Below, piece after piece: positions 227 to 44,975 of a stretch of DNA of 47,550 bases (position 1 is its first letter; each line of letters begins with the position of its first letter). The DNA is taken from the NCBI GenBank assembly GCA_001871075.1, contig MNUP01000028.1:1-47550 (forward strand), read 5' to 3'. A program made the position numbers and the translations under genes. The notes under the pieces are model-generated. The model saw only the letters and a list, made by a program, of their open reading frames with translations, was not told the DNA's origin and did not search any database. The DNA is from Candidatus Desantisbacteria bacterium CG1_02_49_89. GTDB lineage: Bacteria; Desantisbacteria; UBA1551.

Positions 227-422
227 TTCCTGCAGTTCCTATCCCCTGTAGCCCCTTTGGGGCTTAACATAGGGACCTGCGAGCCAGAGCCCTGCCAGCT
301 CCAAAGGAGCTCAACGGCAGGACCTACGAATCAGAACGGAGCTGATGATTCTCCGGCTGGGTAGATGGCTCTTCGGTTAATGCAGGAACCTACAGACCTG
401 AACGTGGTCGAAGGTCTTGCGG
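227..422 (+). repeat. Triple-nested cluster of 67-nt-class palindromic mini-elements (outermost 227-422, middle 243-376, inner 290-356)
   Basis: Each layer has a first stem (TTCCTGC/GCAGGAA, CCCTGT/ATAGGG, CCTGCC/GGCAGG), a CCTRC linker, a second stem and a TNCGG end. Removing 290-356 restores the 12-nt loop GAGCTGGGTAGA of the middle unit. Confidence 0.8.
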
Positions 423-460
423 ACGGGGGGACTTCGGCTTCGCCTCAGGCTTCGCCTCAG

Positions 461-540
461 CTTGACCCCTGCTAATTTCTGTGAAATTAAGCTGCTGGGG
501 TCTTCGTCTCTTGGTTCTTAAGTGGGGTTTTTTCCTTGAC
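461..540 (+). repeat. Copy of the 74-nt hairpin repeat that ends in TTTTTTCCTTGAC
   Basis: 74/80 identity by eye to 17737-17816. Confidence 0.9.
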
Positions 541-576
541 AAACAGCGGAAAGTATGCTATACTTATAGTAAGTAT
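536..576 (+). promoter_or_regulatory. Sigma70 promoter of the TA operon with overlapping palindromic operator
   Basis: TTGACA (536-541), 17-nt spacer, TGc-TATACT (559-564). Alternating half-sites AAGTAT 551-556, ATACTT 560-565, AAGTAT 571-576. Confidence 0.75.
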
Positions 577-608
577 TGCTTACAATAAATAAGGAAAGGA
601 AGGATAAT

Positions 609-893
609 ATGAGAACTGCTAACGTCAGGCCCGTAGGCCCCAGGAATCAGGTAACCCTGCCCAAGGAAGCGCTTGAGCTTTTTAAAATACACCCCCATGA
701 CCTCATCGCTTTTGTGTATACCAAGGAAGGCATACTCATTAAGCCGGTCACCGTTGTTGACAGAGACGCGTCTTTCGCTGAAGACGACCTTGACGAGATA
801 GAAAGGTCCATCCGGCAGCAGGTAAACGCCGGAGATTTTACCGAATTTTCCAGTTCAAAAAAAGCGGTCAGCTTTCTGAAGGGAAAGAAATGA
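609..893 (+). CDS. AbrB/MazE/SpoVT-family antitoxin
   Basis: N-terminal VGPRNQVTLPKEALELFKI swapped-hairpin motif, acidic C-terminus, ATG at 609 after GGA-rich SD, ATGA overlap with the next gene. Confidence 0.8.
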   Translation: MRTANVRPVGPRNQVTLPKEALELFKIHPHDLIAFVYTKEGILIKPVTVVDRDASFAEDDLDEIERSIRQQVNAGDFTEFSSSKKAVSFLKGKK

Positions 894-1165
894 AGGTTAG
901 ATACCTGAATTCTTTCATCCTCCAGTTTGAATCTATGCCGGCGCAGGACAGGCGGAAAGTCACCGGTGCTGTCTCCGGCCTGCTTGGTTTCATCGAGAAA
1001 AGGGTCCGCCCGCCCGCGGGACTGGGCATAAAGAAGCTCAGGAAGAACCTGTGGGAAGCCAGGGCGGGCATCAGAACAAGGGTTCTTTTCGCGCTTGAAC
1101 CGGGCCTGGTTACTTTCGCTTTTACGGGAAACCACGACGAGATCCGCCGGTACCTGCGGAAATAA
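890..1165 (+). CDS. RelE/ParE-superfamily toxin
   Basis: 91 aa, basic, IKKL..LWEAR....RVLF and C-terminal GNHDE motif, translationally coupled to the AbrB-like gene. Confidence 0.7.
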   Translation: MKVRYLNSFILQFESMPAQDRRKVTGAVSGLLGFIEKRVRPPAGLGIKKLRKNLWEARAGIRTRVLFALEPGLVTFAFTGNHDEIRRYLRK

Positions 1166-1196
1166 CCGCAATTTTTCCAGCCTTAGACAAGACAGT

Positions 1197-1216
1197 AAAT
1201 AAAGGGGACGGGTTCA
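1197..1216 (+). repeat. 20-bp direct repeat AAATAAAGGGGACGGGTTCA (second copy 5512-5531)
   Basis: Exact match between the two copies, which flank the 1298-5323 gene. Confidence 0.85.
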
Positions 1217-1297
1217 ATCAAAAATCCCCCTCACTCCCCCTTTCTGAAAGGGGGATGAAAGGATTAAAAGATATTGTTCTTTACGGGAGGTACTATA

Positions 1298-4200
1298 ATG
1301 AAGTATCAGATATTTATGACACAAGCGGTCATACTGGCAGTATGTGTGGGGGGGTGTATCATGAAACAGGTTGAGGGTAATGCTGCCCAGCCGGATCAAA
1401 CAGCAACCCGGTCAGACGCGACCGTGGCATACTGGAAGTTTGACGGGGACCTTAAAGATTCTTCAGGCAGGGGGCATGATCTCAAGGCGGCGGGCGCGAA
1501 GTTCGGTCCCGGGCATTCAGGGCAGGCGCTGAAGACCGGCTTTGAGGGGTCGGTGCTGACCAGCTCAGACCTTCAGCTGGCCCCCGGGTTCAGGATAGAA
1601 TGCTGGGTCTGCTTCGAGCGCCACTCTTCCGGCTGGCCCTCGTTCGTCAAAAAGAACACCGAATACATACTGCGCCTGGACCCGGCTGAGTATGGCGGGC
1701 ATTTTTCGTTCTTCGTGTACCTTGACGGGTGGGAGCCGGGGGTGTCGTCCAAAGTGAAGGCGGAGCCCGGAACCTGGTACCATATCATCGCGGAGTGGGA
1801 CGGGTTCAACTCCACGCTTGAGGTTAACGGCGAGAAAACAAGCGTTAAGCGCACTGGTTCGCCCAGGGCAGGCCGTTCCCCGCTGGAGGTCTGCTCGCTG
1901 GACGGGATGTTAGACGAGGTGCGCATAGAGAACATGATGCTTCCGAGGATTAAAATGCTTTACGCGGCAGCAGGCGGCCTGCCATTCTTTTCAGGGACCG
2001 CGAAGCCCGGGCAGGACCCTGTGGTGGGGAACTGGAAGTTCGACGGGGACCTGCGAGACGCTTCAAGCCAGGGCCACGAAATTACCACGAAGGACGCGAG
2101 TTTCGGCCCGGGGCATTCAGGCCAGGCGCTGCAAGTCGGTACCGAGGGATCGGTGCCGAGCAGCCCTGACCTGCAGATGGCGCCCGGTCTGAAAATAGAC
2201 TGCTGGGTCTTCTTCGAAAAGCACTCGCCGGGTTTTCCCGCGTTCGTGATCAAGGAACGCGAATACCAGCTGCGCGTGGACCCTGCGCCGCCCAAGGCAA
2301 GCGGGCTGTTCTCGTTTTACGTGTTTTTAAACGGGTGGGAGCCGAAGGTGTCGTCCACTTTTAAGCCGGAACCCGGCAACTGGTACCACCTTGTGGCGCA
2401 GTGGGACGGGTTCAATGCCACGCTTGAAGTTAACGGCGAGAAAACAAGCGTCCAGCGCCTGGGAATGCCAAGGCCCACCAACAACCCTCTTAAGATCGGC
2501 GCGCTGGACGGGATGATAGACGAACTGCGCATCGAGAACCCGATGTTTCCCGCGATGCAGAAATACCTCGCGGAGGCGGCCGAAGCCCCGCAGCGCGGCA
2601 GCGGGAGCCAGGACCACTTCGGGAAAGGGGCTGGCTGGCCAGGCTGGACAGGGATGTACGGCGCGCGCGTCGCGGCTTCAGGCGATAAGCTTGAAATAAC
2701 CCTGCCTGATTCCAACGCGATGGCGATCAACCCCGCTTTTAACCTGGACCTTAACCAGTACCGGTATGTGTGCTGCGATATTTCCTCCCCGGTGCCCGTG
2801 ATGCTTATATTCATCACGGATGCCGGGTGCGGCACCGCGTACCTGCCCGCAACCCAGGCGTCGCGCACATCCGTGGCTGACCTCAGTTCCAATCCGAGCT
2901 GGAGGGGAAAATTGAAGCTGCTTGCCCTGCTTGCCCCGGGCGCGGGTTCCCGCGGCATACAGATGGAGAACCTGTGGGTATCCGGAAAACCCGAGGGCAA
3001 GCCGTACCTGCAGGTGCAGCGCATAGTCTGGGACCACGCCATACTCAGCATCGGCAAGGAGGAGAAGGTAAGCGCGCTTGTTGAGGCGCGCGGCAGCGAG
3101 GGCCTGGAGGTCAGGGACGCGACCGCCTCTATTATTCTGCCGAAGGGCATTAAGTGCGCCGGCGACAAAACGCGCGAGCTGGGCACTCTGCCCACAGGCG
3201 CAAAAAAGACGGTGGAGTGGACTGTGATCGCGGATACAGAGACCAGCGGCAAGGTGACGGTCGTGATGAAGGCGCCTGACTGCGCGCAGGCATCGAAGCG
3301 CGGCTTTGTGTTCGCCGGCTCATTCACGCAGCTGTTCCCGGCAGTGAAAAATATCGCAACGACATACTATATCGACAGCGTGAACGGCCTGAACGGCAAT
3401 CCCGGCACTTCCCCTGATTCCCCGTGGAAGGACTTCACGAACATCAACGGCAAAACCCTGGGGGCCGGGGACAGGCTCCTTATAAAACGCGGCAGCGTCA
3501 TCAACCAGGAACTGCGGGTCTCGGCCAAAGGCGCGAAGGATAACTGGGCGGAGATCGGGGCCTACGGCACAGGGACGCGGCCCACGATACGGCGTAACTG
3601 GCACATTTCAGACCGCTGCGTCCTTATCACAGACCCGGATTATTTGTGGGTGCGCGGCCTTTACGTGACCTGCGCCGCGAGCGGTATATACGTGAGCTAC
3701 TCGCAGCCCAACCACGCGGGGCTGTTCATAGACGACTGCATCGCGTCCCACATCGAGGGGCGGTACAGCGGGTACCTTAACAGCACAGGAATACCTGAGT
3801 GGCGCGACATTCCGTGGCTGGACCCGGAGGGGTACTGCGGCATCATGGTGGGAGGCAGTTCAGCGAAGGATATCACCTTCAGCAACTGCGAGATGTTCCA
3901 TACGTCCTCCGCGTTCCGCATCAAGGGAGAGCGGGTGACGCTGGACAGGATGTTCGCGCACAGCTGCTACGTGCACAACACCTGCCCGCACCCCTACCTG
4001 GTAGACACCAGGAAATCAATGATGAAGAACTGCGTGCTGAACGCGTCAGGCGGGCACGCCAGCCGCGGGACCATGGGAATAATGCTGGGCGGCATGTACG
4101 GGATGATACTCTTTAACAATACCATCCGCAACATGCCGGACTCGCTCACCTGGGACCAGGGGGGGGTTGATTTCGAGTCGGGCGGCAACTGCTGCCTGAT

Positions 4201-5323
4201 AGACCATTGCACCTTCGAGAACAACGCGGGAGCGGCGATCGAGGTGCTGGGCCTGCAAAGCCCGCAGGCAAAGAACGTGGAGATACGCAACTCGCGTTTC
4301 ATCAAGGATAACTGGGTGAAGAAGAACTGGGGGCCGGCTGAGATCTATATCTGGGAATCAGCAGGCAAGAATTCGGACCCCAATATCGTCTGCTCCGACG
4401 GCACGATCCACGGCAACGGGTACGTCCTGGTCCCGGGAGTCGCGTTCTACGCGAACAAGGCGGAAGCGCTGACCAGCTGGAGGCTTTTTGACAACGCCCA
4501 GTACCAGACCGCTGAGGAGCTGCGCAAGGCTATGCCGCTTAACGACCCGCCGGATGTTGATGCGGGGGATGCTGTATACTCGGACAAGCTTACGTTGCAG
4601 CTGGCAGGTTCGGTAAAGGACGACGGCAGGCCTGCAGGCGCGCGCCTGAAGATACAGTGGGAGGTGCTTGAAGGCCCCGCTTCCGCGGAAGTGTCATTTG
4701 AAAATGAGGCATCTTCGACAACCAAAGCAACATTCGCCAAGCCAGGCGATTACCTTTTGCGGCTGGTCGGGGATGACAGCGAGCTGTGGACCAGCGACAT
4801 GGTAGCGGTGCACGTGCTGCCCAAGGGTGCGTCCGCGGCAAAAGCGTGGGAATTCAACCGCCAGCTGGACAAGGAGGGCTGGACCGAGGAAAACCTGGGC
4901 ACCAGGGACCGCAAGGAAGGGACAAAGGACTACGAAGTGACCAAGCCGGTCAAGTACGTTTCCGGCGGGTACTACATTGTCTGCGTTGAGAAAAGCACCA
5001 ACGCCTGCCTGCTTTCACCCGAAGATCTGAGCCTGGATATTTCAAAGCACAAGACCATCACAGTGCGGTTCCATAACCACACGCCCGCGGCAAGCATGCG
5101 TTTCTCCTTTACGACCGAGGCAAGCCCTGACTGGAACGAAGCCAACGGGCAGTTTTTCGAGGTGACACCCAACGACAACGGGCCCCGCGAGTACGCGGCG
5201 GACATGTCAAAGGCGCCCGGATGGAAAGGGAAACTTAAACAGCTGCGGTTCGACTTTGCCACAGGCGCCGCGCTTACAGGGACATGCCGCATTGACTACG
5301 TTCGGATAGACAGCTCTAATTAA
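1298..5323 (+). CDS. Large secreted or lipoprotein multidomain protein: two LamG domains, CBM-like module, Ig-like domain, right-handed beta-helix, PKD-like domain, C-terminal CBM-like module
   Basis: GGAGG SD before ATG 1298, hydrophobic N-terminus ending VGGC, two AYWKFDG..DSSG.GH / GMLDEVRI LamG units, TYYIDSVNGLNGNPGTSPDSPWK beta-helix start, PPDVDAG PKD start. Confidence 0.75.
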   Translation: MKYQIFMTQAVILAVCVGGCIMKQVEGNAAQPDQTATRSDATVAYWKFDGDLKDSSGRGHDLKAAGAKFGPGHSGQALKTGFEGSVLTSSDLQLAPGFRIECWVCFERHSSGWPSFVKKNTEYILRLDPAEYGGHFSFFVYLDGWEPGVSSKVKAEPGTWYHIIAEWDGFNSTLEVNGEKTSVKRTGSPRAGRSPLEVCSLDGMLDEVRIENMMLPRIKMLYAAAGGLPFFSGTAKPGQDPVVGNWKFDGDLRDASSQGHEITTKDASFGPGHSGQALQVGTEGSVPSSPDLQMAPGLKIDCWVFFEKHSPGFPAFVIKEREYQLRVDPAPPKASGLFSFYVFLNGWEPKVSSTFKPEPGNWYHLVAQWDGFNATLEVNGEKTSVQRLGMPRPTNNPLKIGALDGMIDELRIENPMFPAMQKYLAEAAEAPQRGSGSQDHFGKGAGWPGWTGMYGARVAASGDKLEITLPDSNAMAINPAFNLDLNQYRYVCCDISSPVPVMLIFITDAGCGTAYLPATQASRTSVADLSSNPSWRGKLKLLALLAPGAGSRGIQMENLWVSGKPEGKPYLQVQRIVWDHAILSIGKEEKVSALVEARGSEGLEVRDATASIILPKGIKCAGDKTRELGTLPTGAKKTVEWTVIADTETSGKVTVVMKAPDCAQASKRGFVFAGSFTQLFPAVKNIATTYYIDSVNGLNGNPGTSPDSPWKDFTNINGKTLGAGDRLLIKRGSVINQELRVSAKGAKDNWAEIGAYGTGTRPTIRRNWHISDRCVLITDPDYLWVRGLYVTCAASGIYVSYSQPNHAGLFIDDCIASHIEGRYSGYLNSTGIPEWRDIPWLDPEGYCGIMVGGSSAKDITFSNCEMFHTSSAFRIKGERVTLDRMFAHSCYVHNTCPHPYLVDTRKSMMKNCVLNASGGHASRGTMGIMLGGMYGMILFNNTIRNMPDSLTWDQGGVDFESGGNCCLIDHCTFENNAGAAIEVLGLQSPQAKNVEIRNSRFIKDNWVKKNWGPAEIYIWESAGKNSDPNIVCSDGTIHGNGYVLVPGVAFYANKAEALTSWRLFDNAQYQTAEELRKAMPLNDPPDVDAGDAVYSDKLTLQLAGSVKDDGRPAGARLKIQWEVLEGPASAEVSFENEASSTTKATFAKPGDYLLRLVGDDSELWTSDMVAVHVLPKGASAAKAWEFNRQLDKEGWTEENLGTRDRKEGTKDYEVTKPVKYVSGGYYIVCVEKSTNACLLSPEDLSLDISKHKTITVRFHNHTPAASMRFSFTTEASPDWNEANGQFFEVTPNDNGPREYAADMSKAPGWKGKLKQLRFDFATGAALTGTCRIDYVRIDSSN

Positions 5324-5377
5324 AAATAGTTAAAGGTTGAAGGTTGAAAGTTAAAGGTTGAAGGCGTGAAACTGCTA

Positions 5378-5511
5378 CCCCTATAGCCCCTTCGGGGCTT
5401 AACATAGGGGCCTGCGAGCCAGAGCCCTGCCAGCTCCAAAGGAGCTCAACGGCAGGACCTACGAATCAGAACGGAGCTGATGATTCTCCGGCTGGGTAGA
5501 TGGCTCTTCGG
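5378..5511 (+). repeat. Second copy of the 134-nt nested mini-element
   Basis: 131/134 identical to 243-376; similarity stops at the element ends. Confidence 0.9.
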
Positions 5512-5576
5512 AAATAAAGGGGACGGGTTCATTTATTTGCCTGTAAGATGATCTTTGCTTCGCGCAAATGATGATT

Positions 5577-5630
5577 ACCCCTGCAGTCCCGATAAAAAGA
5601 ATCGGGACAAGACGCAGGGGTCCTTTAGGG
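5577..5630 (+). repeat. 54-nt palindromic insert (ACCCCTGC...GCAGGGGT)
   Basis: Removal gives GATTACAGTGATTATT, identical to positions 3-18. Confidence 0.7.
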
Positions 5631-5904
5631 ACAGTGATTATTAAATAATGATTACGGTGTTAAAACTTTCTTCACAGGGATTCAGCGGGATTCAAACTAC
5701 AGGCATGTGTCCCGCCCAGCAAACGTGGCGGGCAGGCATGAGTGAAACCGCTTATTGCGGCAAACACTCGACATTTATTTGTGAGCAACAAGGTTCTGCG
5801 AAGCAGGTTCTTATGGCATATCGCATATGGCGTATCGTTTAAGACAGATACTGAATCCCAGATACCGAATGAAGGGAAATTAAAAGTAAAGAAGGAGGTA
5901 TAAA

Positions 5905-6267
5905 ATGCCTGAAGACGAAGAACCAAGAGCCGTAGAGTTCAGTGATATGGGGATTTTGCTGACAAACATCGAAAACGTTCCGGGCAAGACGATCACAAAG
6001 CATTTCGGGCTTGTGGCAGGCAGCACGGTGCGCGCGAAACATATCGGCAGGGATATCGCAGCGTCCTTTAAGAACATTGTCGGCGGCGAGCTGAAGGGTT
6101 ATACAGAGCTATTGCAGGAATCCCGCAAGCAGGCGACCCTGCGGATGATACAGCAGGCAAAGCAGCTGGGGGCGAACGCCGTGGTGAACGTGAGGTTTTC
6201 CACATCTTCGATCACGCAGGGCGCAGCGGAGCTCTACGTTTACGGAACGGCTGTCAGTGTGGAATAA
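5905..6267 (+). CDS. YbjQ (UPF0145) family protein
   Basis: GLVAGSTVRAKHIGRDI, GGELKGYTELL.ESR and LGANAVVNVRF motifs; AAGGAGG SD. Confidence 0.9.
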   Translation: MPEDEEPRAVEFSDMGILLTNIENVPGKTITKHFGLVAGSTVRAKHIGRDIAASFKNIVGGELKGYTELLQESRKQATLRMIQQAKQLGANAVVNVRFSTSSITQGAAELYVYGTAVSVE

Positions 6268-6276
6268 GGGGGCATT

Positions 6277-6738
6277 ATGGATATTTCCAACGTTGTCAAC
6301 TTAATAATATTCATTTTTCTCGTCGCCCTCGGATATTTCGCGGGGACCGCAGCCGAGAAGAAGCATTATAGATCCATAAAAGAACGCGAGAAAAAATTCC
6401 TTGGCATGCCCGCAGTGACGATAGAAAAAGCAGAGGATGAGTCCGGGATCGCGGACGCCCGCCTTGTCTGCGGCAGCGTGGTAGTATCCGTGGATTATTA
6501 CAAGCGTTTTCTCGCGGCCCTGCGCAACATCGCGGGCGGCGAGGTAATGTCCTACGAGACCCTTCTTGACAGGGGGCGCAGGGAAGCGGTGCTGCGGATG
6601 AAAGAAAGCGCGGCCGGCGCGGACATGATAGTGAACATGCGCCTGGAAACAGCCACTATAAGCGGGAAGGCGAACAGAAAAGCCGTGGGAACCGTGGAGG
6701 TCATGGCCTACGGCACTGCCATAACGCTGAAGAGGTAG
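6277..6738 (+). CDS. Membrane-anchored YbjQ-family paralogue
   Basis: N-terminal TM helix, GGEVMSYETLLDRGRREA and AYGTA motifs. Confidence 0.85.
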   Translation: MDISNVVNLIIFIFLVALGYFAGTAAEKKHYRSIKEREKKFLGMPAVTIEKAEDESGIADARLVCGSVVVSVDYYKRFLAALRNIAGGEVMSYETLLDRGRREAVLRMKESAAGADMIVNMRLETATISGKANRKAVGTVEVMAYGTAITLKR

Positions 6739-6739
6739 A

Positions 6740-7576
6740 GTGAAATACGAGCCGAAAGAAACGGGCGGGAACGTTAATGTGTCTCCCCGTTCTCCAATAA
6801 AGGAATTTTTTATCCTGGTTGGCGGCATACTGGGTGTAGCGCTGGCAGTTTATGTGATACTTGGGATCGCGGCTGAGTTAATAGTGTCGCGATTGCCGCC
6901 GGATTTTGAAACAAAGCTGGGCGCGGTATATTCAAGGGCGTACCCCGAAGCAAAACAGAGGACGGAAGCCGAAACATGCCTGCAGAAAATACTGGACAGG
7001 CTGCAGGAAGGCCTTCCCCCCGGCCAGCGGGGGTACAGGGCCCGCATAGTCCAGAGCGGCAAGGCCAATGCCTTCGCGGTGCCCGGCAAAAATATTGTAG
7101 TTTATTCGCAGCTGCTGAAAGAGGCCGGTTCAGAGAACGAGATCGCAATGGTGCTGGCCCATGAAATAGGGCATTTTGTCAACAGGGACCATTTGAAGGT
7201 CCTTGGAAGAAGGATAGTATTGCTTTCTATGTCAATGGCGGTTCTGGGCGGCGACAATGCCGTCACGGGAATGCTGCAGAATTCGCTTTTTGCCGCTGAA
7301 TCGAAATTTTCCCAGAAACAGGAAAGGTTCGCGGATGAGTTCGGGCTGCGGCTGCTGAACGCGACATACGGCCACGCGGCGGGGGCGGTTGATTTTTTTG
7401 AAAGGCAGGAAACTAAGCAAAAATACCCGAACTTCGCATTTTTCTTTGCAGGCCACCCTTCACACAAGGACCGCATAAATATTTTAAAGAAGTTAATAAA
7501 TGAAAGGGGATACAAGATCAAAGATAAAATACCCGTGGACAGCAAGATAAAAGCAGCTGGGGTCAGGTCTTTTTAA
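6740..7576 (+). CDS. M48 family zinc metallopeptidase
   Basis: NAFAVPG, HEIGH (HExxH), FSQKQERFAD and HPS motifs, N-terminal TM segment. Confidence 0.9.
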   Translation: MKYEPKETGGNVNVSPRSPIKEFFILVGGILGVALAVYVILGIAAELIVSRLPPDFETKLGAVYSRAYPEAKQRTEAETCLQKILDRLQEGLPPGQRGYRARIVQSGKANAFAVPGKNIVVYSQLLKEAGSENEIAMVLAHEIGHFVNRDHLKVLGRRIVLLSMSMAVLGGDNAVTGMLQNSLFAAESKFSQKQERFADEFGLRLLNATYGHAAGAVDFFERQETKQKYPNFAFFFAGHPSHKDRINILKKLINERGYKIKDKIPVDSKIKAAGVRSF

Positions 7577-7644
7577 GGCAGTCATGAGTTATGTGTCATG
7601 AGTCATGGGTGAGAGATTGAAAGTGAGAAAAGGAGGTGACCAAT

Positions 7645-7695
7645 ATGTGGAATAAGAAGAGCAGGAAGGAAAACAGAGGCGGGAGAGGAAGATAG
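7645..7695 (+). CDS. Putative 16-aa basic micropeptide MWNKKSRKENRGGRGR
   Basis: AAGGAGGTGA SD 5 nt before ATG; paralogue at 16333-16383 with synonymous differences. Confidence 0.6.
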   Translation: MWNKKSRKENRGGRGR

Positions 7696-7974
7696 CTCGA
7701 AGGCAGCCATTAATATTTAGAAATGCGTCTAATAGTTCAATTGTCCAATAGTCCAGTAGTGCAAGGAATTCGTGTGAATTAGTGAAAATTCGTGGTTATA
7801 AAGGCAGTCATTAGTCATTTGTTAATGCAGAATAAAAAATGCAGACGGATGGTTTAATGCTGTCCATTGTACATAGCAGGCATAAACAGCGGCGGGCAGG
7901 CATTCCACTTTCCCTGAAATAATTCAATACTTAAAATCCAGTCCATAGTTTTTAAGTTTGTATTTGGAGGCATC

Positions 7975-8628
7975 ATGATAAAAAAAGGAAATATTATCAG
8001 GGGCGGAATTTTTGTATTGATGATCTTTTTGCTTGCGGGAGCGGGTACGGCCGTGTCTCAGGAATTTCCTTTACAGGTCCTTTCCGCGACTCCGCGGGGC
8101 AGCGTGGAAGGATACGGCGAATTCAACGAGATCACGGTGATCTTTAACCAGCCGATGGTCCCCCTGGCAAAATTACCTGAAGGCCTCGGTTCAGGGCCGC
8201 TGGTGCTGGAGCCCATTATCAAAGGTAAATACAGATGGATGGGAACAAGCACGCTTGCCTTTACTCCTTCTGAAACCTTTCCTCTTTGCACTGGCTTTAA
8301 GGCTACGGTTCCAGCCGGTACAAAGTCTATGTCCGGACAGGTTTTAAAACAGGACTATATCTGGAGCTTCGAAACCCTGAGGCCAAAGGTGGTTCAACAC
8401 TCTCCGCATCATGGCCAGCAATGGGTAAGGCTGGACCAGGAAATATGGGTGCTTTTCAACCAGGCAATTGTTCCCAGGCTTGTATGGGAAAACGCGGTCC
8501 TCGAGAAGTCTAATTCTTCTCCAGCGGATATCCAGCAGGGCAGGAACATAATGACCGTATCGTGCAGGAATCCATCCAATGAAGAATGGAAAAAAGCTGG
8601 CAATGGATCCCTTCCCCGGACAGGATAG
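7975..8628 (+). CDS. Alpha-2-macroglobulin N-terminal part (signal peptide and Ig-like domains), ending at a frameshift
   Basis: GGAGG SD, signal peptide, ITVIFNQPM and GKYRWMGTSTLAFTP Ig-like motifs; the second Ig domain continues in the -1 frame. Confidence 0.75.
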   Translation: MIKKGNIIRGGIFVLMIFLLAGAGTAVSQEFPLQVLSATPRGSVEGYGEFNEITVIFNQPMVPLAKLPEGLGSGPLVLEPIIKGKYRWMGTSTLAFTPSETFPLCTGFKATVPAGTKSMSGQVLKQDYIWSFETLRPKVVQHSPHHGQQWVRLDQEIWVLFNQAIVPRLVWENAVLEKSNSSPADIQQGRNIMTVSCRNPSNEEWKKAGNGSLPRTG

Positions 8629-11600
8629 CGATCATCAGGCATAAAGAGCAGTTTGAGATAGGCGCCGTTTATAGAATGGTATTAAAAAAGGGATTGCCCG
8701 GAACGGCCGGAAATTTAGGCATGGCAGATACCTATGCTTTTTCTTTTTCAACCGTTAATGTTTTTAAATACACGGGCAGCAGGATAATGCACACGACCCC
8801 CGACCTTATCTGGGACCTGCGGCCGAAATTTTATTTCAGCAATCCCGTAAGGATGAAGGATTTTGTAGTGCATTTCCACTCTGAGCCGAAAATTAAATTC
8901 GCGGAATGGTGCAAGGAGGGCACCCATGCGAGCGCTGAGATAGTACCGGATTTCGAACTCCAGGCAGCCAACACTTATACCATTATCCTGGATCCCGACC
9001 TTCAGGACGAATTCGGCAACCGGCTGGGAGAAGAAGTGAAGATCCTTTTAATTGTAGGAAACTGGCTGCCGCGCGCGATCATCACGCCGGGCTTCGGTAT
9101 CATTGAATCATATATGAAACACCAGTATCCGCTTTTCTGCATGAATATCGGCAGGATCGGCCTGAAGATGAAAGGGATGGCGCCGGACAGCATTATCCCG
9201 TATTTCAACTATGGCTACGGATGGGTCTATACAAGGCCGCTTCCAGTTCCCGAGGCATTCTGGTCCGTGAACAGGATATGGGATATAAAGTCACCCCTGA
9301 ACAAAGGCTATACTTTGCCGGTAGAAACAGACGAGGCAGCAAACCTGGATAAACAGAGCACAGTCCTGCTGCTACTGGACTGCCTTGAAGAGAATTTAAG
9401 TGCCAATAATTGGTATTTCGGAAGCAGGCGTTACCAGAGCGCCATGCTTCAGATAACGGGCATGGGTATCAGCGCAAAGTTTTCTCCCTACAGTAATCTG
9501 GTATTCGTAACGAGATTGCTGGATTCCGTTCCTCTGCCAAAGGCAAAGGTAGAAATAAGGGATAAGGAAAACCGCGTTCTGTGGACCGGGCTCACCGACA
9601 ACAACGGGGTCTGCATAACGCCGGGCTGGAAAAAACTGGGATTGAGCATAGATCCGGAAAATCCCTGGCAGAAACCGATGCAGTGGGTATTCGTCTATCG
9701 CGGCATAAACTTTGCCTTTATTAATTCTGAGTGGGAATCGGGCATCTTTCCGTGGAGGTTCCATGTAAACTATGATTGGTACAACGCTCCGCAGGACATG
9801 GCAGGATACGTGTATACGGAAAAGGGGATCTACCGCCCGGGGGAAACCGTCCACATAAAATGCTGCGTGCGCGAGAAGGAGGACAGGGCCTGGAACATAC
9901 CTTCCGGGTGCACCATGGTAATGAGGATAACGGATTCAAGGGGAGAGGAATTCTTAAAGAGGAAGGTAAACCTTTCCGGTTTCGGCTCTTTCTCGGAGGA
10001 CGTAAAGATCCCGCAGGCGGCAGCGCTCGGTTACTACACTATCAAGATAAGATTCCCGAAGGAAAAGCCCGGTGAGCAGGAAAAACCCTGGGATGACTGG
10101 CGCGAAGCGAACTATGTAGCGGGGACCTTCAGGGTCGCGGAATACAGGCCCGCGCAGTTCGAGGTTAACGCGAGGGTTTCAAAGGACAGCTACGTGTTCG
10201 GAGACACCGCGAGCGGGAAAATAGAAGGAAGATACCTGTTCGGCGCGTCCATGTCGGGCTGTAACGTCAGGTGGAATATATTCAGGAACCGTTCTTATTA
10301 CGAACCGCCCGGGCACAAAGGCTATTATTTCCAGGGAAACTGGTGGACTGACGAGGGATCAGGGGCGCGGGAAGGACTTATTACGCAGGGTTCCGGGGTG
10401 CTGGACAGCCTTGGCACGGTTGACGTGAACTTCAGGCTTGACGGCAGGAATTACTCCGGGACGGCGCGGTATATGCTGGAAGGAACAGTGCAGGACCTTG
10501 ACCGGCAGCAGATCACGGGCAGGGCAGGCACCACGGTCCACCGCGGGACTTATTACATAGGCGTAAAGCCGTCCTCGACCTTCCTTGAGAAGGGAGATCC
10601 GGTAAAACTCCAGATCATTGCCTGCGACATAAACGGCGAGACTATTGCGGGCAGGGAACTCAGGCTAAACCTGGTCCACAGCGAGTGGTGCTCAACATAC
10701 AGGGCTGAGGTAGGCGGCAGGTACCACTGGGTGACCGAAAAGAAGGATACGATAGAAGACACCAGGTTTATCACCACTGCCCTCATTCCCGCGGAGGTGG
10801 ACCTGAAACCCGATAGTATTGGTTATTATATCGTCCGTGTTGAGGGAAATGACGAGCGGGGTAATCCCGTAAAGTCAGGCTGTTATTTTTATATTACCGG
10901 ATCCGGGTATACTGCCTGGGAGAGGAATAACGACGATATCATTGAACTTGTCGCGGATTCCCAAAAATACAAACCGGGAGACACCGCAAAGGTGCTCGTA
11001 AAGTCACCCTACGAATCCTGCTCCGCGCTTGTCACGCTTGAAAGGGAAGGTATTATTGACAACTGGGTCACGAAACTGTACGGGAGCGCCGACAGGATAG
11101 AGATCAAGCTTACAGAGGACCATCTTCCGAACGTTTTTGTTTCTGTCCTGCTTCTCCAGGGCAGGGCAGGAGAGAAGAAACTCTCGGAAGAAGGCGAAGA
11201 TGTCGGCAAGCCGTCTTTCAAGATAGGATACGCGAATTTACTGGTTGACCCCGGGACGAAGCATCTTCAGATAGACGTAAAGACCAACAGGAAAGATTAC
11301 CGTCCCGGCGACGAGGTAAGGGCCGAGGTGAAGGTAAAAGACGCCCTGGGCAGGGGAATAGAATCCGAAATATCCCTGGCCGCGGTTGACGAGGGAGTGC
11401 TGAGCCTGATAGGATACCGGACGCCTGACCCGTTTCCCGCTTTTTACGGCCCGCGGCCGCTTTCCGTCAAAACCGTGGAAATGCGGGCAGGGATAGTAGG
11501 GCAGAGGAATTACGGCGAGAAGGGCGAGGACAGGGGCGGAGGCGGCGGCCTGGGCATGGCAGGTTTTGATATCAGGAAGAAGTTCGAGGCGTGCGCTTAC

Positions 11601-13688
11601 TGGAACCCGTCCATTATTACCGACGGGTCGGGCAGCGCGGCCGTTAAATTCAGGCTGCCCGATAATCTGACCACCTTCAGGATAATGGCAGTTGCGGGCA
11701 CAAAGGATTCGCTTTTTGGCAGCGGAGACTCAAAGATCAAGACGAACAAGCCGTTGATGCTGAGGCCTGCGTTTCCCAGGTTCGCGCGGCTCGGTGACGA
11801 ATTCGAAGCAGGTGCGGTGGTCCACAACTATACAGGCAAGGGCGGGACGGTAACGCTGGCGGTTTCGGCGGAAGGCATCAAACTGAAAAGCGGAGCGGTG
11901 AGAACCTTTTATCTTGCAAACAACGAAGGCGCAGAGTTCAGGTATCCTTTCGGCGCTGACCGGATAGGCAGGGCTGTTTTTACTTTTAAGGCGGTCCTGG
12001 ATTCTGAAAAGGACGCAGTCAGCATATCCATTCCCCTGAATCTTCCGAAACCTACCGAATCGGTCGGCCTGTTCGGAAGCACGACAGGCGAGCAGAGGGA
12101 GTGGATCGAGATCCCGGAAGACTTCATACCGGGAGTAGGCGGGGTGACCTTTACTGCCGCGTCAACGGCAATGGTCGACCTTGCCAAATGCTCAGAGTAC
12201 CTGTTCAATTATCCTTACGGTTGTCTCGAACAGCGCCTTTCCAGGGTGCTGCCGATGATCTTGTTCGGAAAGGTCGTGGACGCTTTCAAGCTGCCGGGGC
12301 TTGTGGAAAGAGATTATCACCAGGTCATACAGGAAGACCTTAATAAAATGGTGTCTTTCCAGCTCCCGAACGGCGGGATGGCAGCCTGGGTTGACAGCGC
12401 CTATGACAATCCGTATATCTCCGCGTACGCTCTGTTCGCGATGCACAAGGCAAGGCAGGAGGGTTACAGGGTTGACGAAAGAATGATGCAGAAAACCAAA
12501 GATTACCTGATCAACGTTCTCAGGAACAAGGCAAACCGCTCGTATTATCCATACTCACGCGTCTGCTGGAATTACACAGACTGTTTCATACTGCAGGCCC
12601 TGGCAACCTGCGGTATCTACGAGCCTGCTTTAGCTGAATACCTGTATAATTACAGGTCTGAACTTCCCTATTTCGCGCTGGCCATGCTCTGGAAGGCGAT
12701 CGTGATAGGCAAGGGGAACCAGAATATGGCGCAGGTGCTCAGGCAGATGATAGATAACGGAATGAAGATCGACAGCACCACCGCGCATTTTGAGGAGCCG
12801 GACAGGGAAGGCCTTGGATGGGTTTTCCATTCAAACACCCGCACGACCGCGGCGGTCCTGCAGGCATTTCTTGAGATGGATAAGGCCCATCCTGCAGCGG
12901 AGAAAATGGCCAGGTGGCTGCTGCAGGCAAGGAAAAGAGGCGTATGGCGGTCCACGCAGGAGAACCTGTACGTGTTCTGGGCGCTCGCAACTTATTTTGA
13001 AAGGTATGAAAGCGAGACGCCGGATTTCACTGCCGGCATAAAGGTGGAACAGAAGGAAATGCTCTCGGATATTTTTAAGGGCAGGTCCCTTAAAACAAAC
13101 CGCAAAATAATCCCGCTTGAAAATTTCACAAAAGGCAAGACTTTGCCGATGCTGTACACCTGCAAGGGCAAGGGCAGGTTTTACTTCGGGACCTGGCTGA
13201 CCTACGCCCCTAAGAAGGAAATTCCCGCCAAAGACGAGGGTTTTTCCGTCCAGAGGCTGGTTGAAACAATGGATGGAAAACCCGCGGACCTTGCAAAGGT
13301 AAAAGCGGGAACGATGCTCAGGATAAGAATAATAGTATCCACGACGCGGGACAGGAACTACGTTGTGGTTGACGACCCGATCCCCGGCGGATTTGAACCG
13401 GTGGACACCACCCTTAAGACAGAGTCAAGGCTTGAAGGTTTCCAGTCCCGGTCCGAGGACAGGTTCGGCAACCGCCGCTGGTGGGGTTCGTTCAACCGGA
13501 GCGAGCTCTATGACGACAGGGTGGTGATATTTGCCGATTACATGAACGCGGGGGTCCACAACTATTCATACCTCGTAAGGGCGACAACCTACGGCGGGTT
13601 CCGCGCGCCTGCCACCAAGGCAGAGGAGATGTACGCTCCAGAAGTGTTCGGGTATGGAACCGCGTACAACGTGACGATCGTAAAATAA
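8586..13688 (+). CDS. Bacterial alpha-2-macroglobulin (YfhM-like), main part
   Basis: YTEKGIYRPGETVH MG2 motif, Gly-rich bait region, LPDNLTTFRIMA, thioester motif YPYGCLEQ, AEEMYAPEVFG C-terminus; adjacent to pbpC. Confidence 0.93.
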   Translation: MEKSWQWIPSPDRIAIIRHKEQFEIGAVYRMVLKKGLPGTAGNLGMADTYAFSFSTVNVFKYTGSRIMHTTPDLIWDLRPKFYFSNPVRMKDFVVHFHSEPKIKFAEWCKEGTHASAEIVPDFELQAANTYTIILDPDLQDEFGNRLGEEVKILLIVGNWLPRAIITPGFGIIESYMKHQYPLFCMNIGRIGLKMKGMAPDSIIPYFNYGYGWVYTRPLPVPEAFWSVNRIWDIKSPLNKGYTLPVETDEAANLDKQSTVLLLLDCLEENLSANNWYFGSRRYQSAMLQITGMGISAKFSPYSNLVFVTRLLDSVPLPKAKVEIRDKENRVLWTGLTDNNGVCITPGWKKLGLSIDPENPWQKPMQWVFVYRGINFAFINSEWESGIFPWRFHVNYDWYNAPQDMAGYVYTEKGIYRPGETVHIKCCVREKEDRAWNIPSGCTMVMRITDSRGEEFLKRKVNLSGFGSFSEDVKIPQAAALGYYTIKIRFPKEKPGEQEKPWDDWREANYVAGTFRVAEYRPAQFEVNARVSKDSYVFGDTASGKIEGRYLFGASMSGCNVRWNIFRNRSYYEPPGHKGYYFQGNWWTDEGSGAREGLITQGSGVLDSLGTVDVNFRLDGRNYSGTARYMLEGTVQDLDRQQITGRAGTTVHRGTYYIGVKPSSTFLEKGDPVKLQIIACDINGETIAGRELRLNLVHSEWCSTYRAEVGGRYHWVTEKKDTIEDTRFITTALIPAEVDLKPDSIGYYIVRVEGNDERGNPVKSGCYFYITGSGYTAWERNNDDIIELVADSQKYKPGDTAKVLVKSPYESCSALVTLEREGIIDNWVTKLYGSADRIEIKLTEDHLPNVFVSVLLLQGRAGEKKLSEEGEDVGKPSFKIGYANLLVDPGTKHLQIDVKTNRKDYRPGDEVRAEVKVKDALGRGIESEISLAAVDEGVLSLIGYRTPDPFPAFYGPRPLSVKTVEMRAGIVGQRNYGEKGEDRGGGGGLGMAGFDIRKKFEACAYWNPSIITDGSGSAAVKFRLPDNLTTFRIMAVAGTKDSLFGSGDSKIKTNKPLMLRPAFPRFARLGDEFEAGAVVHNYTGKGGTVTLAVSAEGIKLKSGAVRTFYLANNEGAEFRYPFGADRIGRAVFTFKAVLDSEKDAVSISIPLNLPKPTESVGLFGSTTGEQREWIEIPEDFIPGVGGVTFTAASTAMVDLAKCSEYLFNYPYGCLEQRLSRVLPMILFGKVVDAFKLPGLVERDYHQVIQEDLNKMVSFQLPNGGMAAWVDSAYDNPYISAYALFAMHKARQEGYRVDERMMQKTKDYLINVLRNKANRSYYPYSRVCWNYTDCFILQALATCGIYEPALAEYLYNYRSELPYFALAMLWKAIVIGKGNQNMAQVLRQMIDNGMKIDSTTAHFEEPDREGLGWVFHSNTRTTAAVLQAFLEMDKAHPAAEKMARWLLQARKRGVWRSTQENLYVFWALATYFERYESETPDFTAGIKVEQKEMLSDIFKGRSLKTNRKIIPLENFTKGKTLPMLYTCKGKGRFYFGTWLTYAPKKEIPAKDEGFSVQRLVETMDGKPADLAKVKAGTMLRIRIIVSTTRDRNYVVVDDPIPGGFEPVDTTLKTESRLEGFQSRSEDRFGNRRWWGSFNRSELYDDRVVIFADYMNAGVHNYSYLVRATTYGGFRAPATKAEEMYAPEVFGYGTAYNVTIVK

Positions 13689-13727
13689 TTTTAAAAATAA
13701 AAGTCCGGACCGGAACGGAAGGAAGGT

Positions 13728-16163: not shown

Positions 16164-16209
16164 AGCGGTTTAATAGCCGGGGTCAGGTCTTTTAAATACA
16201 GTCATGCGT

Positions 16210-16281
16210 CCCGCCTACGTAAAGACTTAGCAAACCCAAGACTTTTCTATTCGAAGAGGGTTTGCTAATACTACGGCGGGC
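16210..16281 (+). repeat. Nested palindromes CCCGCCTACG...CTACGGCGGG containing the 11-bp IR TTAGCAAACCC/GGGTTTGCTAA
   Basis: Absent from the paralogous segment at 7579-7612. Confidence 0.7.
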
Positions 16282-16332
16282 ATGCATGGGTCATAAGTGT
16301 GAGATTGAAAATGAAAAAAGGAGGTGATCAAT

Positions 16333-16383
16333 ATGGGTAAGAAGAAGAGCAGGAAGGAAAACAGGGGCGGGAGAGGAAGGTAA
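16333..16383 (+). CDS. Putative 16-aa basic micropeptide MGKKKSRKENRGGRGR
   Basis: AAGGAGGTGA SD 5 nt before ATG; 14/16 aa identical to 7645-7695. Confidence 0.6.
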   Translation: MGKKKSRKENRGGRGR

Positions 16384-16591
16384 CTAAAGAAACTGATTGT
16401 TCAAAAAAAGGATTGTTCACTGAAAAAGATGGTTCAACTCAACTGATCGTTCAATACAGGGCAATGGAAAAGGGGACAGGCTACTTATTGCAGTCTATTG
16501 AGTCCAAAATTTAGGTACTAAAAACTGGTGCCAGGTCTTCTGTGAACAGTCCTTACTCAAGACCTGGCACTCAATTCTTGCCTATGTATTA

Positions 16592-16719
16592 TCCCTGTAG
16601 CTCCAATCATCCCTCCTACTTTCTTTCGAAAGTGACAGGGGGGACCTGCGCCCGCCAATATTCGTGGCGGGCTTCGGCACAGGGATCTACGAGTCAGAAC
16701 TGGGTTAATGACTCTCCGA
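16592..16719 (+). repeat. Nested mini-elements (inner unit 16610-16677)
   Basis: Outer TCCCTGT/ACAGGGA plus GAGTCA-N12-TGACTC; inner CCCTCCT/AGGGGGG plus GCCCGCC/GGCGGGC-TTCGG. Confidence 0.8.
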
Positions 16720-16726
16720 GGTTTAA

Positions 16727-17389: not shown

Positions 17390-17652
17390 TTTGAAAAATA
17401 GGGACAGTTGTATCAGTTTAATTATTCTGTTACCTAACAAACTATGATATTTAAATAGTTGTTAGGTAATTTTTTTATCCCTGCAAACGTGCGACGAAAC
17501 GTCGTACCCCGCCAAGGTAATTGGCGGGCGCAGCGCTACATTACTACAAGATTGCTTCGCTACGCCCGCAATGACACGCAAGGCTCCCTCCTGACAAAAT
17601 TGGCGGGTCTTCGAAAAGCCTTGCCCTACGAAAGAATAAATCGGGGGCGGCT

Positions 17653-17816: not shown

Positions 17817-17840
17817 AAATGTCAAAAAATAACGTATAAT
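17812..17840 (+). promoter_or_regulatory. Consensus sigma70 promoter, probably giving a leaderless or near-leaderless mRNA
   Basis: TTGACA (17812-17817), 17 nt, TATAAT (17835-17840); ATG 8 nt later with no SD. Confidence 0.8.
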
Positions 17841-17848
17841 GTTATAAA

Positions 17849-31265: not shown

Positions 31266-31334
31266 TCCCCCCTACTTTCTTTCGAAAGTGACAGGGGGGA
31301 CTTTCGGGTCAGAACTGAGCCTATGACCCTACAG
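31266..31334 (+). repeat. 67-nt-class mini-element (variant first stem, standard second stem)
   Basis: TACTTTCTTTCGAAAGTGACAGGGGGGAC shared with 16617-16645, then GGGTCA-GAACTGAGCCTA-TGACCC. Confidence 0.8.
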
Positions 31335-31345
31335 AGGAAGATAAA

Positions 31346-43142: not shown

Positions 43143-43196
43143 GAATCCTCCTAATCCCCCTCAAATCCCCCTTTAATAAAGGGGGAAGAAGGGGGA

Positions 43197-44513
43197 TTAT
43201 CTTTTAAGGAATAATTCCACGACCGGCACCGTGACGCTGGGCTTGTCCGCAGGCAGCTGCAGCACTACCGATCTTTCCTGCCTTTTGCCTATCTTCTTCC
43301 TTGCCATCTGGTCCGCCACCCAGGGCTCAAGCCCCAGCCCGATCTCGCTGGCGTCATTTAACAGCTGGGCGTATTCAACCCTGTCAGCAAAAGCGTTGCC
43401 GTCAAGATAAAGGTGCCTGTAAGGCCACGCGAGTATGTGCACGTAAAGCCTTCTTGCCGCGGGGTTGTAAGTAAGCTTACAGTTCTCAGGCACATTGAAC
43501 TCAGCCGGAGCCTGGGTGCAGCCGTAGATAGACCTGCCGTGCCTTCTCATCCATTCGCCTATACCCTCAAGCCTGGCAATAGCGCGGTAATCGAATTCTC
43601 CCCTTGCCGTAGGGCCCACGTTCAATAAAAGATTGCCGCCCTTGCTGACGCAGTCGATAAGGGTGCGGATAAGCTCGTCAACGCTCCTCCATGAGGACTC
43701 GTCCCTGTGGTATCCCCATGAGCCGGAGAATGTCTGGCAGGCTTCCCACACCACTTTCTGGCCGTTGACAGTTACCCATTCCCTGGGCTGGAACTGTTCA
43801 GGCGTCTTGATGTCCCATCCTTTTTCAAGGTCAAGCCTGTCGTCCAGCATTACGCCGGGCATCAGTTCCCTTACCATCTTGTAAAGTTTTTCGCTCTGCC
43901 ATTCGTTGCGCCCTTTGCCTGACCCGTCAGGCTTGGGATAGGAAAAGTCAAACCACATTATGTCTATCTTGCCGAATTTTGTCAGCAGTTCCCTTACCTG
44001 GTTGTGCAGGTATTCCGCGTATTTTGCCTGGTTGCGCGTCTTGTTCATTTTATCCCTGTCAGCGTTGCGGTACGGCCCGACATGGGGATCTATCGTGTAC
44101 TGCGGGTGATGCCAGTCGATCAATGAATGGTACAGGCCAACGCGCAGGCCGTTATTGCGGTACGCGTCCACCATAGGTTTTAAAAGGTCCTTGCCGCATG
44201 GAGTGCTGGGCGCTTTGTAATCGGTGTATTCCGAATCCCACAGGCAGAAACCTTCATGGTGCTTTGTCGTGATGACGAAATATTTCATGCCCGCGTTCGC
44301 TGCTGTCTTCGCCCACATCTCGGGGTCATAAAGGTCAGGGTTGAAATGTTTGAAATACCTGCGCTCGTATTCAGGGACGGGTATCTGCTCGTTGTGCTGC
44401 AGCCACTCGTGCCTGGCGCCCATCGCGTACAGCCCCCAGTGAATGAACATCCCGAACCTTGCTTCCGTGAACCACTTTGAATCTCCCGCCGTTCTCCGAA
44501 CCTGCTCCGCCAT
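43197..44513 (-). CDS. GH29 alpha-L-fucosidase
   Basis: WF.EARFGMFIHWGLY, TTKHHEGFCLW, WFD nucleophile, SKGGNLLLNVGP; start MAEQV after AAGGAGG. Confidence 0.95.
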   Translation of the reverse strand: MAEQVRRTAGDSKWFTEARFGMFIHWGLYAMGARHEWLQHNEQIPVPEYERRYFKHFNPDLYDPEMWAKTAANAGMKYFVITTKHHEGFCLWDSEYTDYKAPSTPCGKDLLKPMVDAYRNNGLRVGLYHSLIDWHHPQYTIDPHVGPYRNADRDKMNKTRNQAKYAEYLHNQVRELLTKFGKIDIMWFDFSYPKPDGSGKGRNEWQSEKLYKMVRELMPGVMLDDRLDLEKGWDIKTPEQFQPREWVTVNGQKVVWEACQTFSGSWGYHRDESSWRSVDELIRTLIDCVSKGGNLLLNVGPTARGEFDYRAIARLEGIGEWMRRHGRSIYGCTQAPAEFNVPENCKLTYNPAARRLYVHILAWPYRHLYLDGNAFADRVEYAQLLNDASEIGLGLEPWVADQMARKKIGKRQERSVVLQLPADKPSVTVPVVELFLKR

Positions 44514-44811
44514 TGCTCCTCCTTTTTTAAAACAGTCATGGGTCATGCGTCATGAGTCATGTGTAAAAAGCGTGTCAGCGTGTCAACGTAAAAACAAGGA
44601 TTTTATTGTAACTCAAACCTTCAGGTTTGATATCAGGACTCCCTCCTTAAAGCCTGGCGGGTCTTCGAAAAGTCCTGAGTTACACATCGTTCTCACTAAA
44701 CTCAGTGCCTTCGGCGGCAAAATGAGTTCTCGTAAGTTCCCTGTGAAAAGAGTCTTAAGGTAGTCTCCCGCCACTTCGGCGGGTCGCCGATGGGGCGACT
44801 GTGCCTCTGTG

Positions 44812-44878
44812 CCGTAGCGCCATCCACTCAGTTCTGGTGCGTAGGTCCCTGTGTTGAGCTGCGTAGCAGTTACAGGGA
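44812..44878 (-). repeat. 67-nt mini-element
   Basis: TCCCTGT...CAAC-ACAGGGA-CCTAC-GCACCA-GAACTGAGTGGA-TGGCGC-TACGG, interrupting a CTCTGTG simple repeat. Confidence 0.85.
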
Positions 44879-44908
44879 ACTCTGTGGTAATTCTTTTCGT
44901 GCTTTCGT

Positions 44909-44975
44909 CCGCAGCGCCATCTGCTCAGCTCTGGCGCGCAGGCCCCTGCGTTGAGCTGCGCAGCAGCTGCAGGGG
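44909..44975 (-). repeat. 67-nt mini-element
   Basis: CCCCTGC...CAAC-GCAGGGG-CCTGC-GCGCCA-GAGCTGAGCAGA-TGGCGC-TGCGG; the empty site matches the reverse complement of about 47041-47067. Confidence 0.85.

Follow-up and report, generated by a model that had tools for sequence, protein, structure and literature searches.

How can a repeat of some 67 nucleotides come to lie inside other copies of itself, and what put it there? The question is raised by a 47,550-nt stretch of DNA from Candidatus Desantisbacteria bacterium CG1_02_49_89 (contig MNUP01000028.1; hereafter the window), which is the whole of contig C71 in a 150-contig, 2.48-Mb genome that is 93.5% complete; the sequencing runs that contain window DNA are groundwater and aquifer metagenomes. 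A preliminary description had reported a family of two-hairpin units in the window, and every unit on its list was found in place. We show here that the family is a new, lineage-specific element of the repetitive extragenic palindrome (REP) kind, whose fold compensatory changes have preserved on both strands. Comparison of filled with empty sites shows that the family is mobile, its copies having been inserted cleanly and without target duplication.

The unit measures 66-73 nt, the short form being 67 nt, and consists of two hairpins that are unrelated in sequence, fold separately and are unable to pair together. The outer stem of hairpin 1, YCCCTGY/RCAGGGR, is 7 bp long and encloses a variable inner hairpin, with GTAG, GCAG or CCAG on its 5' side and a YAAC bulge on its 3' side. 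Hairpin 2 can be written as CC-TRC / 6-bp stem / 12-nt loop GARC...RA / TNC-GG and bears a GNAG tag when read on the opposite strand, so that the unit resembles a head-to-head REP heterodimer. Among 101 copies, the tags fall into 35 GTAG-like, 42 GCAG-like, 7 CCAG and 17 other; in 15 of 102 full-length copies hairpin 2 is replaced by an alternative, GCCCGCCA/TGGCGGGC, which is a CCCGCC...GGCGGG hairpin. The consensus of 38 aligned clean units agrees with the one proposed previously. Because 66-73 nt cannot hold an open reading frame (ORF), the unit is non-autonomous, and its earlier characterization as a non-autonomous, structured element is supported by both length and fold.

The 38 aligned units gave a consensus fold of 19 pairs in four helices: the outer stem of hairpin 1 (helix 1, 6 bp in the model), the inner hairpin that precedes the YAAC bulge (helix 2), a 2-bp CC/GG clamp enclosing a 3x3 internal loop (helix 3), and the 6-bp stem with its 12-nt loop (helix 4). 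In 66 of 86 copies the base just before the model start (-1) is paired with the one that follows hairpin 1 (42 T-A, 24 C-G), which brings the outer stem to 7 bp and the short form to 67 nt, the length originally claimed. Compensatory changes were present in 14 of the 19 predicted pairs, and the observed covariation, which the preliminary description had left to be checked, was reached by 0 of 500 shuffles. Paired cells made up 97.8% of 722, compared with 82.1% in the shuffles, and sliding the partners by 1-3 columns lowered pairing to 29-55%. Unpaired bases are conserved in the YAAC bulge and at the GA...A ends of the loop. G-U pairs account for only about 7 of the 722 cells, and when the copy at 26198-26264 was folded as single-stranded DNA (ssDNA) the two strands behaved alike (-15.5 and -15.9 kcal/mol, z about -3.9); scarce G-U pairing together with equal folding of both strands fits a structure at the DNA level better than one in RNA.

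A covariance model built from the 38-unit alignment (R1) gave 109 matches in the genome at E<=0.01 with 150 of 740 candidates scored, and a structural scan counted 41 hairpin-2 modules genome-wide. Only 6 of the 109 copies lie inside called ORFs. In 40 other genomes, a set that includes only one from the same order, R1 found one weak match, in that one genome. A 25-nt degenerate pattern had one chance match (a Pseudonocardia record) among 185,579 species genomes, none in viral contigs and 79 metagenome loci, which are either 99-100% identical to the genome or come from a relative at about 81-93%. In agreement with the statement that the family matches none that is named, Rfam returned no match at the gathering score over the whole window and none at E<=1 over positions 200-520, and a literature search that included Desantisbacteria repeats retrieved only analogues of the family, not the family itself. 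The copies in the window, together with two unoccupied sites identified by sequence comparison, are as follows (C and L numbers denote contigs of the genome and metagenome loci).

227 to 422, plus strand: outermost unit of a three-level nest; hairpin 1 (TTCCTGC...GCAGGAA) split by 243-376, hairpin 2 AGACCT / 12-nt loop / AGGTCT; R1 matches its 3' half at 370-422
243 to 376, plus strand: middle unit, GTAG type; its 12-nt hairpin-2 loop split by 290-356
290 to 356, plus strand: innermost 67-nt unit, CCAG-tag subfamily, with GAG of the host loop on one side and CTGGGTAGA on the other; R1 match 291-356, 79.7 bits
5378 to 5511, plus strand: second two-level composite, inner unit 5425-5491; R1 match 5426-5491
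16592 to 16719, plus strand: GTAG-type host, hairpin 1 interrupted by 16610-16677; R1 match 16651-16719
16610 to 16677, plus strand: inner unit of CCCCCCTAC type, hairpin 2 being the alternative GCCCGCCA/TGGCGGGC hairpin
26198 to 26264, minus strand: single 67-nt GTAG-type unit within another repeat; R1 match 26198-26263, 78.0 bits
31266 to 31334, plus strand: single CCCCCCTAC-type unit, its end 12 nt before the ATG at 31346; R1 match 31268-31334, 61.3 bits
44812 to 44878, minus strand: single unit in a CACAGAG / CACGAAAG word array; R1 match 44812-44877, 76.6 bits
44909 to 44975, minus strand: single GCAG-type unit between C and A of a CACGAAAG word; R1 match 44909-44974, 81.3 bits
425 to 449, no strand: unoccupied paralogue of the site filled at 26198-26264
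47041 to 47067, no strand: empty word array paralogous to the site filled at 44909-44975

Removing a unit from its surroundings restored a host motif in each of the three cases put forward before (290-356, 26198-26264 and 44909-44975). Without 290-356, or likewise without 5425-5491, a 12-nt loop GAG|CTGGGTAGA closes between GAGCCA and TGGCTC; without 26198-26264, the joined flanks match 425-449 at 24 of 25 positions spanning the junction; and without 44909-44975, they agree in 32 of 34 columns with the reverse complement of 47020-47080. The unit at 44812-44878 differs from its paralogous empty site by one base beyond the 66-nt model match, with nothing missing. We extended the comparison to the whole genome by joining the 30-nt flanks of each copy and seeking a match across the junction in the rest of the genome and the metagenome loci. 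The joined flanks matched an unoccupied paralogous site for 70 of 108 testable copies, and in the best matches nothing was missing from the target for 49 of the 70 (the model unit plus 1 nt in 32, exactly the model unit in 8, plus 2 nt in 9). Extra bases numbered at most three, and three in only one of the 70 copies, giving no sign of target duplication. When the boundary was shifted by 15 nt as a control, only 8-11 copies kept a spanning match; a shift by 7 nt left 32-39, as the periodic 7-9-nt words in the flanks would lead one to expect. The earlier claim of insertion without duplication is supported, and that of precision holds for these 49 copies but not for hairpin tips, which lose the host loop.

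In 11 cases in the genome the family is nested in its own copies, such that the host is again matched by the family profile once the inner unit is deleted. In the window, the host stem of hairpin 2 in 243-376 closes around the insert when folded as ssDNA, and this host, minus its inner unit, is matched end to end by the family hidden Markov model. The composite at 5378-5511 is identical to it at 131 of 134 bases and is a two-level nest copied as a whole. Three closed nesting levels, with open 5' fragments upstream, occur in L049, which belongs to a related species. Hosts split in hairpin 1 (227-422 and 16592-16719) are the exception to exact restoration, as a few to about 10 host bases are missing after removal; at 16592-16719 it is the 3' inner arm of hairpin 1 that is missing, an architecture that recurs at C135:24279-24404 and in L049. 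The insertions are not confined to repeats. A 66-nt copy at C100:7199-7264 (L134:400-465) is read in frame, on its opposite strand, as part of a 465-aa SLFN_AlbA_2/HATPase_c_4/HTH_24 gene, where it adds 22 codons and splits the HATPase_c_4 Pfam match into two stretches, and the added stretch is absent from two paralogues (gaps of 25 and 21 residues). At an orthologous intergenic hairpin repeat, the related species has a GTAG-type copy in a TTCG loop and this genome a different family member plus the 3' half of another.

The preliminary description saw no conserved target motif. This view has to be revised, since the type of hairpin 1 predicts the landing context (chi-square p = 4e-16). Copies have landed in the 12-nt loop of other copies, at the tips of other hairpin repeats, where tandem 7-9-nt words join and, once, in a coding gene. 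CCAG-tag copies lie in the 12-nt loop of another copy in 7 of 7 cases, between CAGAG and CTGGGT and in at least six different hosts. A flanking inverted repeat of at least 6 bp, indicating a hairpin tip, accompanies 8 of 35 GTAG-like and 0 of 42 GCAG-like copies (27 of about 5,000 random positions), and a CACGRA-type word stands 3' of 33 of 42 GCAG-like and 5 of 35 GTAG-like copies (127 of 20,000 random positions). The association may reflect true target choice or, equally, copying together with flanks, and is thus no proof of targeting. At tips, the empty form ..CCGAT-NNNN-ATCGG.., of which there are about 96 hairpins, corresponds to the filled form ..CCGAT-unit-TCGG..; no loop-less CCGATCGG palindromic hairpin was found as an empty tip target (16 of 16 occurrences were without a flanking stem), and the count of CCG-ATT-CGG triloop hairpins was 0. 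CCCCCCTAC-type copies always replace the 3' inner arm of the host hairpin 1. Another long-hairpin repeat, GACCCCTGCTAATTTC-loop-GAAATTAAGCTGCTGGGGTC, occurs in the window at 463-510, 17665-17712 and 17739-17786, and its tip hosts family copies at C82:11272, C149:1495 and L056.

No enzyme that could move the units is encoded in the window, as had been stated, but candidates are present elsewhere in the genome. Ten Y1_Tnp (HUH) matches were found, all outside the window; four of the proteins lie above the NCBI REP_Tyr_transpos (RAYT) cut-off and four others just below it. The set consists of one IS200 transposase, two 160-aa RAYTs, one 181-aa RAYT and six longer proteins with NH[VLY]H / YIE[LM]NP motifs, which are those of subclass 2.1 of Quentin et al. 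(PMC6006769). Four of these six, the RAYT-like genes at C13:6573-7268, C100:21667-22362, C38:3680-4345 and C114:4833-5498, are bracketed by an inverted repeat of their own of 10-19 bp, for example GGGGACGGGT...ACCCGTCCCC followed by a T-run, and look as if they sat in the tip of a terminator-like hairpin; no bracketing inverted repeat was seen at the other two, C80 and the truncated C51. A solo half of this bracketing repeat lies in the window at about 5517-5540. Window positions 5579-5650 hold a hairpin-1-like CCCCTGCAGTCCCGAT...ATCGGGACAAGACGCAGGGG without hairpin 2, flanked by GATGATTA / GTGATTATT words, an arrangement also found upstream of the RAYT-like gene on C13. The two 160-aa RAYTs (C23:1500-4500) lie amid tandem GTAAC-tagged hairpins, TCAAACC...GGTTTGA and TCAGGGC...GCCCTGA, pairs of which often adjoin GCAG-type copies elsewhere (e.g. 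C99:11368-11443 and C147:3300-3397). The IS200 at C83 has other hairpins, CCCCGCGG...CCGCGGGG. TnpB (PF07282) and IS110 (PF02371) were not found in this 93.5%-complete genome, the only reverse transcriptase is a fragment at a contig end, and a search for genes bracketed by inverted family copies returned only ordinary metabolic genes.

We put at about even the chance that the family is a lineage-specific, GYAG-tagged REP-like heterodimer moved as ssDNA in trans by a RAYT-like enzyme. The folded single-stranded element would be excised or copied, and a RAYT-like Y1 (HUH) transposase of the genome would join it, in trans, into unpaired DNA. Mobility is what the filled and empty sites attest, and the enzyme is what we infer. 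Several observations count against this explanation. The tag is GYAG or CCAG, not strictly GTAG/GTGG. None of the Y1 genes lies within about 2 kb of a copy or is flanked by the family, and the RAYT genes are flanked by different hairpins of their own. The one other genome of the order has three Y1 matches but one weak family match. IS200/IS605 elements are strongly strand-biased, whereas the bias of the family is weak, with 46 sense and 26 antisense copies among the 72 that lie between co-directional genes. In filled tips, 4-6 host loop bases are absent (about 9 of 70 copies, in several unrelated host repeats), a loss that IS608-type insertion does not predict; nor does a simple insertion of this kind predict the arm replacement by CCCCCCTAC-type copies.

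Variation between strains gave no help to this reading either. Metagenome loci of at least 97% identity covered both flanks of 54 of the 109 copies (101 locus-copies), and the filled/empty polymorphism that the preliminary description had called for was not seen: length was constant at 53 of the 54 sites, in a test biased to filled sites because the loci were retrieved by containing the pattern. The sole exception is a tandem array next to an N run, with two 67-nt units 1 nt apart at C135:45089-45221 and four more identical units in L069:10874-11207. Contigs of four runs aligned to window positions 1-20000 showed no 67-nt skip, which says little because contigs break at the repeats. With respect to orientation, neighbouring copies less than 150 nt apart point the same way in 12 of 13 pairs, and GC skew, used as a proxy for replication, tracks the gene strand (90% agreement) and adds nothing.

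Tiny hairpin modules other than the family were present or absent between the genome and the metagenome loci. These modules, of 61, 29, 103, 55, 37 and 31 nt, lie at C124:2864, C50:4172, C143:9316, C65:6460, C84:682 and C30:28237, the loci compared being L065, L090, L044/L108, L093/L099, L039/L059 and L079. Five of the pairs are 98-99% identical and C30/L079 is 87% identical; none has a target duplication, and one module lies in the loop of a GGGCGGGC/GCCCGCCC hairpin.

The loss of host loops is the point at which a process without a dedicated transposase has to be considered, namely that after a few founding events the units spread by gene conversion or replication template switching between homologous host repeats, with whole composites duplicated as well. 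Conversion predicts that a tip loop is replaced and not split, as is seen, and the subfamily-specific contexts follow trivially from copying with flanks; the hosts are multi-copy repeats that supply flanking homology, the composite 243-376 recurs almost unchanged at 5378-5511, and the copy number of the tandem array differs between the genome and L069. However, the stems common to unrelated host families are only 4-9 bp, the same loop-replacing outcome is found in at least four unrelated host hairpin families, insertions also occur in unique DNA such as the in-frame site on C100, and the founding insertions would still need a mechanism. We regard this explanation as possible, though unlikely.

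A bolder version of transposition takes the dependence of context on hairpin 1 at face value. Hairpin 1 would act as an address label, each type directing one and the same 67-nt module to an unpaired target of its own, with the resident loop swapped at tips, and one of the nine RAYT-like enzymes or an unrecognised activity would serve the process. The targets would be the 12-nt loop of a sister copy, the ..CCGAT-loop-ATCGG.. tip and the joint between tandem words. To our knowledge, cassette exchange by loop swapping has no counterpart among REPs or IS200/IS605 elements, and we consider the proposal doubtful; if true, it would describe a minimal, naturally retargetable single-strand DNA insertion system.

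The genome also encodes seven small GIY-YIG proteins of 80-97 aa, putatively of the Ssn type, several of them in or beside tRNA genes (C74:10911-11111, C122:3058-3267 and C81:19821-20018, with the 5' half of the tRNA duplicated at C74). Ssn enzymes cut ssDNA beside tagged hairpin repeats (PMC11893778), so a single-strand nuclease of this type could cut at the hairpins, and repair from an occupied copy would then spread the inserts in a homing-like manner. The CCCGCC...GGCGGG hairpin that replaces hairpin 2 in some copies does lie within 150 nt of three of the seven genes (C74:10911, C81:15516 and C55:13417). None of the seven is flanked by or stands beside a family copy, however, the Ssn-related motif (NTS/SRM), with its CGTC tag, hairpin and CYRG, is absent from the family consensus, and Ssn is known only as a nuclease, which makes such homing distinctly unlikely.

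That the family is chiefly a functional structured RNA, a cis-acting stabiliser or regulator of mRNA whose spread is secondary, conflicts with the near absence of G-U pairs and the like folding of the two strands, with the antisense orientation of 26 of the 72 copies between co-directional genes, with the copy inside a gene on the opposite strand, and with the lack of any Rfam match over 200-520 even at E<=1. Every copy in the window points the same way as the genes that flank it, the sense bias across the genome is mild, and the unpaired bases of the YAAC bulge and the GA...A loop ends are conserved, as an RNA function would have it; we nevertheless think this very unlikely. Scarcely probable is a larger mobile unit of which the 67-nt core would be only the apparent part, as the core stands alone in loops, hairpin tips and a gene, and the difference between empty and filled word arrays is the core itself, to within 1 nt, even though GCAG-type flanks are conserved (left ..CCACGRATT.., right CACGGATT.. 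and GTAAACT words, filling whole intergenic regions) and, in the related species, whole orthologous intergenic regions have been replaced.

Intergenic regions are mostly unalignable in the orthologous comparison with the related species. Those wholly different between the two (L098 vs C110:2445-2625, L110 vs C68:10162-10279 and L101 vs C129:19835-20030) lie between conserved orthologous genes and consist of different word arrays and hairpin modules.

The way in which REP-type repeats spread has still to be proved; for REP doublets forming hairpins (REPINs), what has been offered is a few excision reads and a mechanism, by RAYT, that is put forward as a proposal (PMC3116915). The present genome offers a legible natural record, with dozens of clean filled/empty pairs, nests three deep, site-specific subfamilies and few candidate enzymes in 2.5 Mb, and from such a record the rules of target use and the matching of enzymes to substrates can be tested in vitro on short oligonucleotides. 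Intergenic DNA of this uncultured candidate phylum is largely built from such modules. Annotation is affected because what look like small RNAs or extended genes may be repeats, and metagenome assembly because contigs break at them.

Among known systems, REPs are defined by GTAG or GTGG 0-2 nt 5' of a hairpin (PMC6006769). They are 20-40-nt GC-rich imperfect palindromes with many intergenic copies, a description that each hairpin of the family fits. In the family, as in GTAG REPs, bacterial interspersed mosaic elements (BIMEs) and the RAYT system, the hairpins are short, have GC stems and stand on a G-AG tetranucleotide (PMC3733652, PMC6006769); in the two hairpins of the unit it lies on opposite strands, which is how REP heterodimers are laid out (PMC3733652). 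With REPs the family also shares about 100 intergenic copies and the presence of RAYT-class genes in the genome. GTAG REPs within palindromes and in-frame REP insertions of 20-30 codons are both reported in PMC3733652, and insertions of these two kinds are therefore not new. In contrast to REPs, the tag here is GTAG, GCAG or CCAG instead of GTAG/GTGG, the tag lies inside an additional outer stem of hairpin 1, and no RAYT gene here is flanked by the family as its cognate repeat; three-level self-nesting and subfamily-specific landing sites were not met in the accessible text of PMC3733652 and PMC6006769. The REPINs of Pseudomonas are likewise replicative units of two REPs, about 70-100 nt long, supposed to be served by a RAYT in trans and found in tandem clusters, and a 'clover' form with two separate hairpins has been proposed as active (PMC3116915). 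A REPIN is composed of two inverted copies of one REP that form one long hairpin (PMC3116915). As the two hairpins of the present unit are unrelated in sequence, the unit is not a REPIN.

Elements of the IS200/IS605 group and their ORF-less derivatives, palindrome-associated transposable elements (PATEs), have different hairpins at their ends and no terminal inverted repeats, insert cleanly without duplication and have ssDNA as their logical substrate. The family likewise has hairpins at both ends, no inverted terminal repeats and no target duplication, but no autonomous insertion sequence in the genome has its ends, the search for TnpB having returned nothing and the IS200 at C83 having other hairpins; no single 4-5-nt target is apparent, contexts are subfamily-specific, and loops are lost at tips.

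Mitochondrial double-hairpin elements were reportedly described by Paquin in 2000. Like the GC clusters, these are mini-elements of one or two hairpins that lack an ORF, and in both groups, as in the family, there is evidence that they move and that modules merge and are shuffled. In yeast, the GC42 cluster duplicates an AG target (PMC4478555). Both groups are organellar and unrelated to the family in sequence, but the double-hairpin elements too come near it in behaviour.

In cyanobacteria, the small dispersed repeats (SDRs) SDR4-6 are said, after Elhai in 2008, to be tiny structured repeats with precise insertion and mutual nesting. They belong to another phylum, are 21-27 nt long with one motif, compared with 66-73 nt here, and have no sequence similarity to the family. 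According to PMC4390886, SDR5 inserts between bases 3 and 4 of HIP1. Precise insertion, nesting and a defined point within another repeat are common to the SDRs and the family, and of the systems compared the SDRs are the closest in behaviour.

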